Source: a virus
Taxonomy: Duplodnaviria; Heunggongvirae; Uroviricota; Caudoviricetes
Reading direction: 5' to 3' (one strand)
IMG/VR virus record: IMGVR_UViG_2690316028_000001
Location: 1 to 5,153 of that record
Length of the DNA: 5,153 nt
Of the stretch, positions 2,098 to 5,153 are shown in pieces. The position numbers and the translations under genes were made by a program. Numbering within the stretch: the stretch's first letter is position 1; each line of letters begins with the position of its first letter. The notes beneath the pieces were generated by a model, which was not told the origin of the DNA, searched no databases, and was given only the letters and a program-made list of their open reading frames with translations.

Positions 2098-2234
2098 CAT
2101 TCGAATCCTACTTTGCTGATCATCTTCGTCTGCGATGGACTCGGTTACGCATCTATCGTCACCCGGGTTCATTTGCTACGGACTACCGAATACTGAAGAA
2201 TTACGTGAAAACTTATGCTGGAGAAGCGCTATGA
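2094..2234 (+). CDS. ylcG: Small basic protein, 46 aa, YlcG-like (DLP12 rusA-Q intergenic ORF)
   Basis: Not in the ORF track. ATG 2094 overlaps the rusA stop (ATGA) and its TGA at 2232-2234 overlaps the Q ATG (ATGA). Translation [46 protein letters not shown]. Same size and position as DLP12 ylcG. Confidence 0.5.
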
Positions 2235-3061
2235 ACCTTGAAAACACAGTGAAATACCACTTCGCAAAATCCACGCTGATTAGCGATTCTCCGCGCGCTA
2301 CCGCCTCCGATTCACTGACCGGTACCGACATCATGGCGGCAATAGGCATGACTCAGGAACGCGCTGCTATGGGGTACAGTGCTTTCCTCGGCAAGATGGG
2401 CATAAGCAATAACGACCGGGATCGGGCTATCGGACTGCTGGCTGAGTACGCGATGACCAAATGTGACAAGGTTGCCGCGCTGCGTAAGTTGGATTTCGGG
2501 GTTAAGCCTCAGGTGATGTACCAGTTGGCCACCTTCGCATTTGAGGATTATTCCCGCAGCGCAGCCAGTGTAAAACGGTGCGATTGCTGCAACGGTGAGG
2601 GCTTTATTGATGCTGAGGTATTCAGTATGAAAACCAATACGCCGGCACATGCAAAAGAAATCATTAAGGCATCAAAAGCGTTTGGTTTGAAGGTGATACC
2701 TTCGCAGCACCAAAACAGGCGTGAGGTAAAAGAGATAACGCGCGTTCTCTGTCCTCAGTGCAAAGGGAAAAAAGCCATCAGTTGCGCATGTAGTGATTGC
2801 CGTGGCCGTGGGAAAGCGGTGAATCAGAAGGAAACGAAGCAGCAAGGCGTTCCAGTATTCAGCACCTGCAAGCGCTGTGGCGGTCGCGGATATGAGCGCA
2901 TCCCGTCAACTGAGGCCCACGCAGCTGTTTGCCAGATTACGGATGTAATCAGCCTGGATACGTGGAAGAAGTCCGTTAAACCGTTCTATGATCAGCTGAT
3001 TACGAAATTCGATATTGAAGAGGCATGGGCAGAAAACCAACTGAAACAAATAACACGATAA
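2231..3061 (+). CDS. Q: Late-gene antitermination protein Q (long Q family, Cys-rich zinc-finger region), 276 aa
   Basis: N-terminus [33 protein letters not shown]... resembles enterobacterial prophage Q proteins as I recall them. GGAG at 2220-2223 seven nt before ATG 2231. Four CxxCxG-type Cys pairs. Immediately followed by a PR'/tR'-like region and the lysis genes. The ORF-track start at 2135 has no RBS. Confidence 0.85.
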   Translation: MNLENTVKYHFAKSTLISDSPRATASDSLTGTDIMAAIGMTQERAAMGYSAFLGKMGISNNDRDRAIGLLAEYAMTKCDKVAALRKLDFGVKPQVMYQLATFAFEDYSRSAASVKRCDCCNGEGFIDAEVFSMKTNTPAHAKEIIKASKAFGLKVIPSQHQNRREVKEITRVLCPQCKGKKAISCACSDCRGRGKAVNQKETKQQGVPVFSTCKRCGGRGYERIPSTEAHAAVCQITDVISLDTWKKSVKPFYDQLITKFDIEEAWAENQLKQITR

Positions 3062-3087
3062 CGGCTATGGAAGTTAATTCCAGCTAT

Positions 3088-3125
3088 TTACTTTTCCCGA
3101 ATCTGTGTTAATTTTATCCCAACGA
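3088..3125 (+). promoter_or_regulatory. PR'-like late promoter with expected qut (Q-utilisation) site
   Basis: -35-like TTTACT at 3088-3093 and extended -10 TGtTAATTT at 3106-3114, followed by CAACGATGGGTTAATTCGCTCG, which closely resembles the lambda PR' initial transcribed/pause region as I recall it. Exact +1 not determinable here. Confidence 0.45.
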
Positions 3126-3317
3126 TGGGTTAATTCGCTCGTTGTGGTAGTGAGATAAAAAGAGGCGGCGCTTACTACCGATTCCGCCTAGTTGGTCACT
3201 TCGACGTATCGTCTGGAACTCCAACCATCGCAGGCTGAGAGGTCTGTAAAATGCAATCCCGAAACAGTTCGCAGGTAATAGTTAGAGCCTGCATAACGGT
3301 TTCGGGATTTTTTATTT
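3121..3317 (+). ncRNA. 6S-like short late leader transcript (PR' to tR')
   Basis: About 195 nt between the putative PR' start and the tR' U-tract, the length class of the lambda 6S RNA. The sequence looks near-identical to my recollection of the lambda PR'-tR' leader. Confidence 0.4.
3255..3317 (+). terminator. tR'-like intrinsic terminator (the terminator Q-modified RNAP reads through)
   Basis: Outer stem 3257-3265 with 3299-3307 (tcccgaaac / gtttcggga), inner stem gcagg 3271-3275 with cctgc 3288-3292, followed by TTTTTTATTT at 3308-3317. Confidence 0.7.
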
Positions 3318-3392
3318 GGGTCAGTCGTATAAAGGTCATTACGGAAGGCTGTTAACCTTCTTATCGTGGTTCGAGTCCACGCTGTCCCGCCA
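3318..3392 (+). tRNA. tRNA-Asn (anticodon GUU), phage-encoded
   Basis: Manual cloverleaf. Acceptor 3318-3324 with 3382-3388 (6/7 bp, one U-U mismatch), U8, D stem 3327-3330 with 3339-3342, GG in the D loop. Anticodon stem gaagg 3344-3348 with ccttc 3356-3360, loop CUGUUAA (anticodon 3351-3353). T arm cgtgg-TTCGAGT-ccacg (3365-3381), discriminator G3389, encoded CCA 3390-3392. Confidence 0.65.
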
Positions 3393-3442
3393 AATACCTA
3401 CCAGGACCATAAGAGCAAAAGCTCAACGCACTACCCTCTATT

Positions 3443-3468
3443 GCCCACCGCGCCGTGGGCTTTTTTAT
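3443..3468 (+). terminator. Intrinsic terminator downstream of the tRNA
   Basis: GC-rich stem gcccac 3443-3448 with gtgggc 3455-3460, 6-nt loop, followed by TTTTTTATT from 3461. Confidence 0.6.
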
Positions 3469-3574
3469 TGCAGGCCGCAGATATCATTTTCAGATGCCAT
3501 GTAGCAATCAGAGTCTGACGGCCTTTCCCCTACAAACACACACAGCACCATCCGGAAAATCGGAGGTGAGGCCT

Positions 3575-3898
3575 ATGATAATGCCATACAAACAAGATTT
3601 CATCGCTGCGCTACTTGCCGCCAAGGAGCAGGGTATTGGTGCAATGCTGGCTTTTATCATGGCGTATCTGCGTGGTCGCTATAACGGCGGCGCGGTAACA
3701 AAAACGCTAATTGATGCGCTGATGTGCGCGATGATTGCCTGGTTCGTTCGTGACCTTCTGGACTTTATCGGCCTGAGCAGCAACCTCGCCTACATAGCCA
3801 GCGTCTTTATTGGATACATCGGCACCGATTCGATCGGCAATCTTATTAAAAAACTTGCAGCAAAAAAGGCGGGAGTTGACGATGCAAACCAGTCCTGA
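3575..3898 (+). CDS. S: Class I holin, lambda S family, 107 aa
   Basis: Translation [39 protein letters not shown]...[22 protein letters not shown] is very close to my recollection of lambda S107 ([39 protein letters not shown]...). Dual in-frame starts ATG 3575 and ATG 3581 (Met1-Ile2-Met3); GGAGGTGAGG at 3562-3571. Confidence 0.9.
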
Positions 3899-4331
3899 CG
3901 GAATTGCTCTGATAAAAAAATTTGAAGGTTGTCGGCTGACTGCTTACCCCGACCCCGGAACGGGAGATGCGCCGTGGACCATCGGCTATGGCTGGACCCA
4001 TCCGGTTGACGGAAAGCCAGTAAAGCGCGGTATGACTATCGACCAGCAAACCGCTGACAGGCTTCTGAAAACAGGGCTTGTTGGTTATGAGAATGACGTG
4101 CTGAAAGTTGTCAGGGTGAAGCTGACACAAGGCCAGTTCGACGCACTGGTGTCGTTCGCTTACAACGTTGGGTCGCGTGCTCTTTCCACATCTACACTGC
4201 TGAAAAAGCTGAATGCTGGCGATATAAAAGGCGCGGCAGATGAATTTCTGCGCTGGAATAAATCAGGCGGAAAGGTGATGCCGGGGCTCACGAATCGCCG
4301 CAAGGCAGAGCGAGCTCTGTTCCTGTCATGA
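3882..4331 (+). CDS. Endolysin, GH24 phage lysozyme (P22 gp19-like), 149 aa
   Basis: N-terminus [24 protein letters not shown]...TIGYGWT and C-terminus ...[11 protein letters not shown] resemble P22 gp19 lysozyme (recalled), with the T4-lysozyme-type Glu-8aa-Asp...Thr catalytic arrangement. No signal or SAR sequence. GGGAG at 3871-3875 before ATG 3882; 17-nt overlap with the holin 3' end. Confidence 0.9.
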
Positions 4332-4801
4332 TTAGCGCACTGGTTAAGCGTTACTGGCTGCAGTTGCTGGTGCTGGCGTTAATCGGCGCACTGGCTTTCT
4401 TCGTGAACCACTACCGCGACAACGCCATCACCTACAAAGACCAGCGCGACAAAGCCACCAAAAGTCTCCGCCTGGCTAACGACACCATCAAAGACATGCA
4501 GACCCGTCAGCGCGATGTCGCTGCACTGGATGCCAAATACACGAAGGAATTGTCCGATGCTAAAAAGACCATTAACGATTTGCGTCGTGATGTCGATTCT
4601 GGCGCTAAACGGCTGCGCATCGCTGCAACCTGCCCTGGAGTGCCAAAAGCCACCTCCTCCACCGGCGTGGATGATGCAGGAGCCCCCGAACTTACTCCAG
4701 ACGCTCGACGGAATTATTTCGATCACCGGGACGGAATCGCAACCGCTGACAAAATGATTCGCGGCATGCAGGACTACATCAAAGAGCAGTGTCTTAAGTG
4801 A
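4328..4801 (+). CDS. Rz: Rz i-spanin (inner-membrane spanin subunit), 157 aa
   Basis: ATG 4328 overlaps the lysozyme stop (ATGA). Hydrophobic N-terminal segment ([17 protein letters not shown]) followed by a charged, coiled-coil-like periplasmic domain. Position and architecture are typical of Rz. Confidence 0.85.
4557..4757 (+). CDS. Rz1: Rz1 o-spanin (outer-membrane lipoprotein) embedded in the +1 frame of Rz, 66 aa
   Basis: [22 protein letters not shown] gives a lipoprotein signal with lipobox LNGC, followed by the proline-rich [13 protein letters not shown] (lambda Rz1 has [14 protein letters not shown] as recalled). AAGGA at 4543-4547 before ATG 4557. The ORF-track start at 4515 is upstream of the signal peptide and less likely. 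Confidence 0.8.
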
Positions 4802-4820
4802 TTCGTCACCCAAATAACAG

Positions 4821-4848
4821 AGCCTGACTTCGGTCGGGCTTTTTTATT
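4821..4848 (+). terminator. Intrinsic terminator after the lysis cassette
   Basis: Stem agcctgac 4821-4828 with gtcgggct 4833-4840 (8 bp, one U-G), TTCG tetraloop, then TTTTTTATT. Confidence 0.7.
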
Positions 4849-4872
4849 CCCAGAAGAAGCAGGAGAAGAAGC

Positions 4873-5073
4873 ATGTTAACAGTAAAAGTAATGTCGCCAG
4901 GTGGCGGTGAAGAGATTCATTGCGGGTTGAGTGTAGGGTTCAATCCGGGGCAGCAGAGCATCGCGGTATCGGGAATGGACAAAAATGTATTCCTGAAACC
5001 TGGCGAGGTCGCCTACGTGATGAACCAGAACGGGAAGACGGTATCTCGTTACGAGCATAATGACCGCCAGTAG
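4873..5073 (+). CDS. Hypothetical small protein, 66 aa, function unknown
   Basis: Strong RBS AGGAG at 4861-4865 seven nt before ATG 4873. Gly-rich soluble product (MLTVKVMSPGGGEEIHCGLSVGFNPGQQ...). No family recognised. Lies between the spanins and what would be the packaging genes. Confidence 0.45.
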   Translation: MLTVKVMSPGGGEEIHCGLSVGFNPGQQSIAVSGMDKNVFLKPGEVAYVMNQNGKTVSRYEHNDRQ

Positions 5074-5153
5074 CCATTCCAAAGCTCACCTGCTGGTGGG
5101 CTTGATAATGGATATCCCCCTGAGCGGATAAATCAAAAATAACCCCTGCAACG

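Follow-up and report, generated by a model that had tools for sequence, protein, structure and literature searches.

Does the 75-nt cloverleaf that begins where the late terminator of a lambda-like prophage ends belong to a working tRNA, and what would a phage use it for? The question concerns a 5153-nt stretch of DNA, called the window below, in which an earlier inspection of the letters alone (the sequence-only reading) had proposed a tRNA-Asn(GUU) gene, diverged or decaying, with its own downstream terminator. Judged by its sequence, the element is an intact asparagine tRNA gene that follows the late-gene terminator in a lambda-like prophage. We give a probability of roughly 80% to the reading in which the late operon opens with this gene and its product is a functional phage tRNA-Asn(GUU), transcribed from pR' under the control of Q, processed by host enzymes and charged by AsnRS. 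The features that enter into the argument are collected in Table 1.

Table 1. Features at and around the tRNA locus, in window coordinates, with the evidence for each.
Feature	Position	Strand	Evidence and remarks
Late antiterminator Q gene	2135..3061	+	Longest ORF; PF03589 Antiterm 149 bits, in two stretches
Putative late promoter pR'	3087..3114	+	Alignment to lambda pR' (TTGACT / TAAATT)
Lambda-type late leader (6S RNA equivalent)	3121..3317	+	Homology to lambda; ends in tR'
tRNA-Asn(GUU) gene, allele A	3318..3392	+	75 nt; ARAGORN, Rfam, identity to annotated phage copies, covariation
Mosaic joint CCAAATA	3390..3396	+	Homology switch from tRNA phages to lysis-leader module
C/A-rich spacer, 5' part of lysis-leader module (AAATACCTACCAGGACCATAAGAGC...)	3393..3442	+	Module comparison
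Second intrinsic-terminator-like hairpin (GCCCAC-CGCGCC-GTGGGC) plus TTTTTT	3443..3466	+	Terminator scan
Holin gene S	3575..3898	+	PF05106, 103.6 bits; first late protein gene downstream

Detection and structure of the tRNA gene

ARAGORN makes a single tRNA call in the window, a tRNA-Asn with anticodon GTT at 3318-3392 on the plus strand. Rfam model RF00005 matches 3318-3389 over its entire length (model 1-71 of 71) with 55.3 bits (E 2.7e-10), against a gathering score of 29 bits. The two programs bear out the identification as tRNA-Asn with a GUU anticodon. The sequence-only reading had also called for a comparison with the host gene; host tRNA-Asn (asnT) is 76 nt long and scores 72.6 bits, so that the 75-nt phage tRNA scores lower than its host counterpart and well above the threshold.

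The acceptor stem, GGGUCAG/CUGUCCC, has a U4.U69 mismatch at positions 4-69 and is followed by the discriminator G73 and by a CCA encoded at 3390-3392, both present as proposed. A D stem GUAU/UUAC with a U13.U22 mismatch carries an 8-nt D loop that contains GG. The anticodon arm is GAAGG-CUGUUAA-CCUUC, with GTT at positions 34-36 and all five stem pairs, 27-43 to 31-39, of the Watson-Crick type. The T arm is CGUGG-UUCGAGU-CCACG, and the variable loop has 4 nt. When the bases of tertiary interactions were examined (U8, G18G19, U33, T54-Psi55-C56 and A58), T8, the D-loop GG, the CT-GTT-AA loop and GGTTCGAGTCC were found to be kept. The exceptions to the canonical tRNA pattern are the U4.U69 and U13.U22 mismatches. 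The acceptor mismatch and the odd D arm had already drawn attention in the letters alone; both are real, and both are conserved marks of a phage tRNA-Asn lineage. Thermodynamic folding by itself returns a cloverleaf-like minimum free energy structure with a weak z-score of -1.74, a measure that is uninformative for tRNA.

Other RNA families gave only sub-threshold Rfam matches in the window, namely isrJ with 27.2 bits (threshold 37) and sR39 with 16.8 bits (threshold 50). The isrJ match, at 4773-4843 (+), falls on a GC-rich hairpin with a T-run. This element overlaps the 3' end of the Rz reading frame, stop codon included, and reaches about 40 nt past the gene; it is probably an intrinsic terminator.

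The late regulatory region upstream

Pfam matches give the gene order ninB, ybcO, rusA, Q, then S, R and Rz. The true start of Q is possibly an ATG near 2231, and its product would have about 270-308 residues, compared with 207 in lambda. The Pfam match of Q is split by an insert that resembles the DnaJ_CXXCXGXG zinc finger (29.8 bits, cut-off 32.7), and the predicted protein is a member of the lambda Q family with an inserted zinc-finger-like stretch. Two other plus-strand ORFs, at 44-661 (205 aa) and 4873-5073 (66 aa), had no Pfam matches; the latter, which lies downstream of Rz, is kept as a 66-residue gene (10546-10746) in six of six contigs that encode an identical Rz protein.

The putative pR' consists of a -35 element TTTACT at 3087-3092, a 16-nt spacer, and TGT plus a -10 element TAATTT at 3106-3114, from which a transcript would start at about 3121-3122. 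This promoter was assigned by homology only, because the consensus promoter scan did not pick it up; the same scan found no other plus-strand promoter between Q and S. Lambda 44568-44781, the segment with the start region of pR', the 6S leader and tR', shares 95.8% identity with window positions 3100-3315, and the identity ends at or inside the T-tract of tR'. Together with the PF03589 match of Q, this homology of leader and terminator marks a late regulatory unit of the lambda type. The transcribed leader is about 98% lambda, while 3040-3119, the region of the promoter and of Q binding, has diverged; this fits a lambda-family Q with an extra zinc-finger-like insert. The tR' hairpin at 3255-3307 (-26.9 kcal/mol, z -7.6) is followed by the T-tract TTTTTTATTT at 3308-3317, and the tRNA starts at 3318 directly after it, with at most 3 bases between T-tract and G1. 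That the tRNA abuts the U-tract of tR', as first described, is correct.

Distribution of the gene

All 75 nt are identical in 41 phage records, including those of phages 21, Sf6, ST64T, L, SfI, BTP1, HK446, mEp506, Kapi1 and PS3, and many of the 41 annotate a tRNA-Asn (e.g. CPT_21_64 in phage 21 and Sf6t01 in Sf6). Of 5426 complete E. coli genomes, 368 contain the identical sequence, which bears the RefSeq label tRNA-Asn there; none of the complete E. coli genomes matches the window over 80% or more of its length. A curated phage 21 record has the order pR', Q-binding element, a terminator ending at base 1200, tRNA-Asn from 1201, and tRNA-Thr. The gene was detected with tRNAscan-SE by the authors of the SfI and L sequences (PMC3636060, PMC8022706), and Asn and/or Thr genes have been described at the same position in Sf6, ST64T, PS3 and p21 (PMC3636060). 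The gene is already known, having been annotated or discussed since the phage 21, ST64T and Sf6 sequences. Phages 21, Sf6, L, ST64T, BTP1, SfI, HK446, mEp506 and Kapi1 all share the 75 nt and the placement Q-tR'-tRNA-holin with the window. In contrast to the window, however, they have a second tRNA 5 nt downstream, Thr-UGU in general and Leu-UAA in L.

From two IMG/VR scans and the phage records we compiled 157 copies. The sequence in the window, designated allele A, accounts for 77 identical copies plus single-base variants; another, allele B, found for example in Citrobacter phage Omnitron, accounts for 43 identical copies plus variants. The layout of tR' followed by tRNA is found with lambda-type and 21-type tR' and with at least one other type. 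Asn is nearly always first in the array, and the tRNA starts 3-9 nt past the T-tract behind three unrelated terminators. A tRNA-Thr(UGU) follows 5 nt downstream in 87 of 103 allele-A copies, and others have Gly, or Leu in phage L. This usual partner is absent from the window, which has one tRNA where the cassette of 21 and Sf6 has two. Asn-only versions make up 24 of the 157 copies and are mostly of allele B; the window is the sole copy among the 157 to combine allele A, a lambda-type tR' and Asn alone. Among species-representative genomes, the joint between tRNA and lysis leader was found only in an allele-B copy, from Apirhabdus apintestini.

Shiga-toxin phages such as 933W carry the tRNA genes ileZ-argN-argO between Q/pR' and the first late genes. 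These resemble the window tRNA in their late-leader position, but they are rare-codon Ile and Arg readers. An stx-adjacent ileX tRNA is cited in the SfI paper (PMC3636060).

Salmonella phage SI8 (L007, 928-1000) has an odd 73-nt tRNA-like gene, called Gln-CTG by ARAGORN and unannotated in the record, which sits after a tR'-like terminator; the leader module of the window comes next. In Klebsiella phage 2b LV-2017 (L191, 1108-1269), an STnc100 sRNA match of 80.4 bits (threshold 47) lies in the late leader about 430 nt downstream of the tRNA-Asn.

Alleles, relatives and covariation

Alleles A and B agree in the acceptor stem, U4.U69 included, in the anticodon loop and in G73-CCA; the T loop shows a single base difference. 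The shared acceptor stem carries no weight alone, because the scan pattern for allele B required that stem. Nine stem pairs, drawn from the D, anticodon and T stems, differ between the two alleles, and every one of these differences is a compensatory double change. Allele B, known from Omnitron, the Apirhabdus apintestini prophage and many IMG/VR prophages, likewise sits after a tR'-like terminator; it differs from the window in that C13-G22 pair canonically, the D loop has 7 nt and the variable loop 5 nt. Relatives from Klebsiella prophages, a Serratia jumbo phage and a T4-like Mosigvirus have the same D arm and different but fully compensated acceptor stems.

When 14 distinct relatives are aligned, pairing is kept in 95.2% of cells, and both sides change in 14 of the 18 pairs tested, with compensatory changes found in all four stems. 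None of 500 shuffles reached the observed values, and sliding the partners against each other gave 36-51% pairing. Among the relatives, little or no variation is seen in the anticodon loop CUGUUAA, G18G19, the T loop or G73. At 4-69, lambdoid copies have U.U and relatives from lytic phages U.G, and 13-22 is U.U throughout lineage A. By these comparisons, the tRNA structure is under purifying selection. One allele-A copy, in IMG/VR contig 2657245634_000025 (L141, 13532-13606), has GTT changed to GAT (Ile) along with two other substitutions, which could be either anticodon switching or decay.

Host tRNA-Asn genes asnT/U/V/W agree with the window in the anticodon loop CUGUUAA, G73, CCA and the T loop UUCGAGU. 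Host and phage tRNAs differ, among other places, at 1-72 (U1-A72 in the host, G1-C72 in the phage), at 4-69 (U4-A69 versus U.U) and at 28-42 (C28-G42 versus A-U). Every stem differs from that of the host asparagine tRNA, and the gene is therefore no recently captured host copy. Capture from the host or a role as attachment site was rejected on the same grounds, and there is no integrase nearby.

The joint with the lysis-leader module

Downstream of the tRNA the homology switches. The match to the tRNA-carrying phages HK446, mEp506 and Kapi1 stops at 3396. Three prophage loci without a tRNA (L254, L256 and L258) match window positions 3390-5153 at 99.8%, with the joint at about 9063 in their numbering, and contigs with an identical Rz protein likewise match the window only from 3390 onward. 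Because one homology ends at 3396 and the other starts at 3390, the crossover is placed within the common CCAAATA. Elsewhere, the module so joined accompanies allele B or stands without a tRNA; Omnitron shares the 186 nt downstream of the window tRNA at 100%.

The spacer contains no tRNA according to ARAGORN, Rfam and alignments. A remnant of a deleted second tRNA at 3399-3410 was considered, since MAFFT paired CTACCAGGACCATAA weakly with the 3' end of tRNA-Thr. This reading was downgraded because the module (AAATNCCTACCAGGACCATAAGAGC) follows several different tRNAs, among them Asn-B, Arg and Met, and is found without any tRNA in 32 of 67 loci. An intact tRNA ending in TACCAGGACCA was found at no locus. 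The spacer may nevertheless preserve the 3' end of a former tRNA as an old scar (ACCAGGACCA). In some tRNA-less IMG/VR late leaders (...GGCGGCCTTTTTTATTGCACCAAATACC...), the terminator T-tract runs straight into GCACCA, the last six bases of the tRNA-Arg or tRNA-Thr found at the same site in relatives, and these loci look like scars of tRNA deletion. The C/A-rich run CACCACACACCAAAT is present in other tRNA-less late leaders.

The second hairpin begins 50 nt past the CCA. Its stem-loop, 3443-3460, has 6 bp, 5 of them GC (-11.2 kcal/mol, z -3.0), and it is homologous to a terminator annotated in phage L. A terminator about 50 nt on had been predicted, and it exists; its description as the tRNA's own did not stand up. 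The element is unchanged in tRNA-less prophages and therefore belongs to the leader of the lysis genes. The next gene, S, encodes a holin of the lambda family with a Met-Ile-Met dual-start motif. What the window adds to the known gene is minor: a recombinant with Asn alone, whose tRNA meets a tRNA-less lysis leader at CCAAATA, and a following terminator that is the leader's.

Expression and processing

We infer the transcription route, processing and charging, as well as a benefit to the phage. Constitutive transcription from pR' would produce a short 6S-like leader RNA that stops at tR' (3255-3317). RNA polymerase modified by Q would read through tR', the tRNA and the second terminator (3443-3466) and continue into S-R-Rz and the genes of the virion. 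The tRNA lies too close to tR' for a promoter to fit in between, and the plus-strand scan revealed none, so that pR' under Q is the only evident route. Host RNase P would then cut at G1, and host 3' processing would trim the transcript to the encoded CCA. The identity elements of E. coli AsnRS are the anticodon GUU and G73. The window tRNA has both, G73 standing before CCA, and AsnRS would charge it through them, adding phage Asn-tRNA to the pool during late protein synthesis. In a lysogen the majority of transcripts would end at tR', and leaky read-through there would yield a small pR'-leader-tRNA transcript with its end at the second terminator.

Whether the tRNA is cut out of late mRNA or has a separate promoter was left open by the phage L authors (PMC8022706). 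For BTP1 lysogen cultures, the two tRNA genes were set apart when five genes with TPM >100 were listed (PMC7067206), which implies that the BTP1 tRNA genes, with a tRNA-Asn identical to that in the window, are also highly expressed.

Codon usage

A comparison of AAC and AAT use had been suggested together with the gene itself, and we ran it on the late genes of allele-A phages. Asn makes up 4.2% of codons in their late-gene ORFs, and AAC has a share of 0.54, which shows no bias; the host sample for this comparison, 15 K-12 genes, is small and atypical, and the conclusion leans on its agreement with the SfI paper (PMC3636060). The SfI authors likewise found no Asn codon bias and called the tRNA-Asn's significance unclear (PMC3636060). 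In the coat gene of phage L, 24 of 25 Asn codons are AAC (PMC8022706). The host already has four asn tRNA genes (asnT/U/V/W), and many close relatives have no tRNA at the site (lambda; L254-L258). Supplementation of the host tRNA pool for Asn codons is not supported by the codon counts, and the gene's role is described as unclear in two papers.

Alternative explanations

A tRNA with U4.U69, U13.U22, a 4-nt variable loop and 55.3 bits next to 72.6 for host tRNA-Asn might be suspected of being a decaying pseudogene that hitch-hikes in the late leader, the more so as Serratia phage BF annotates a relative as "tRNA-Pseudo" and many relatives have lost every tRNA at the site. However, its score equals that of host serU (57 bits), both mismatches are themselves conserved (U.U or U.G at 4-69, and U.U at 13-22 in lineage A), and we saw none of the disrupted stems, lost invariant bases or free drift that mark a pseudogene. 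The identity of the sequence across dozens of otherwise mosaic genomes, and the compensatory changes in all four stems, therefore lead us to reject decay, and we regard a pseudogene as hardly credible; between the alternatives of a diverged and a decaying gene, only the former survives. Another reading would keep the fold and dispense with decoding: the tRNA would serve mainly as a cleavage signal for RNase P and RNase Z-type enzymes between the qut/tR' leader and the late mRNA. The constant position of the tRNA start, 3-9 nt past the T-tracts of three unrelated terminators, and the near-constant first place of Asn would suit such a role. A cleavage signal, however, would have no need of a GUU loop and a G73 that stay invariant in both alleles as well as in the Klebsiella, jumbo and T4-like relatives; related tRNAs are found in ordinary tRNA clusters of lytic phages, and the same lysis cassette is expressed in lambda and many prophages that lack the tRNA. 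We consider this reading very unlikely and keep to that of a functional, decoding tRNA-Asn.

The remaining alternative follows the same expression route as the preferred reading and differs from it only in the selective benefit: the phage tRNA-Asn would be a back-up that escapes the defence or competition nucleases cutting host tRNA-Asn and is still charged with Asn. Rescue tRNAs are known from other phages, such as the tRNA-Lys of T5 against PARIS and a tRNA-Tyr against retron-Eco7 PtuAB. P2-OLD, a P2 prophage nuclease responsible for the exclusion of lambda, cuts tRNAs with paired CNG motifs, preferably at 28-30 and 40-42, in their anticodon stem; it cuts tRNA-Thr(UGU) first and host tRNA-Asn(GUU) as well (PMC12445682). 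The tRNA-Thr(UGU) of phage 21, which belongs to the same cassette as the window tRNA-Asn and adjoins it there, has been found experimentally to protect against P2-OLD (PMC12445682). Host asnT has CGG/CCG at 28-30/40-42, whereas the window tRNA has AAG/CUU and so has lost the paired CNG motif. A second nuclease, CdiA-CT EC869, depends on G73 and the weak U1-A72 pair when it cuts host tRNA-Asn, and a variant with G1-C72 is a poor substrate (PMC9071432); G1-C72 is the pair of the phage tRNA. Finally, the absence of an Asn codon bias leaves the gene otherwise unexplained. Against this, a suppressor screen of 245 coliphage tRNAs with P2-OLD enriched Thr(UGU) alone, and a change at 28-42 by itself gave no protection, a shortened anticodon stem being needed as well (PMC12445682). 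The anticodon stem of the window tRNA is a full 5 bp and is not shortened, and its anticodon loop is the same as the host's. Klebsiella-type copies and some allele-A variants carry CAG/CUG, with both CNG motifs kept; G1-C72 is the commonest tRNA end pair, and the T4-like relative has U1-A72; and the Thr partner is absent from the window. We found no published test of nuclease resistance for any phage tRNA-Asn. On balance a nuclease-resistant back-up is a possible but doubtful account of the benefit.

Implications

The same observations suggest a bolder proposal, in our judgement an unlikely one: the late-leader tRNA-Asn would form the second half of an anti-defence cassette with tRNA-Thr(UGU), in which the AsnRS elements are kept and the nuclease determinants are lost. 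Within this anti-defence reading, nuclease escape would also draw on the conserved non-Watson-Crick pair at 4-69. If the reading is true, the Asn and Thr(UGU) tRNAs would let lambdoid phages complete late protein synthesis while a prophage or competitor destroys tRNAs. Since P2-OLD cuts host tRNA-Asn and the partner tRNA-Thr protects, the phage tRNA-Asn as a nuclease-resistant replacement becomes a testable question, for which the window offers a natural Asn-only variant without the Thr partner.
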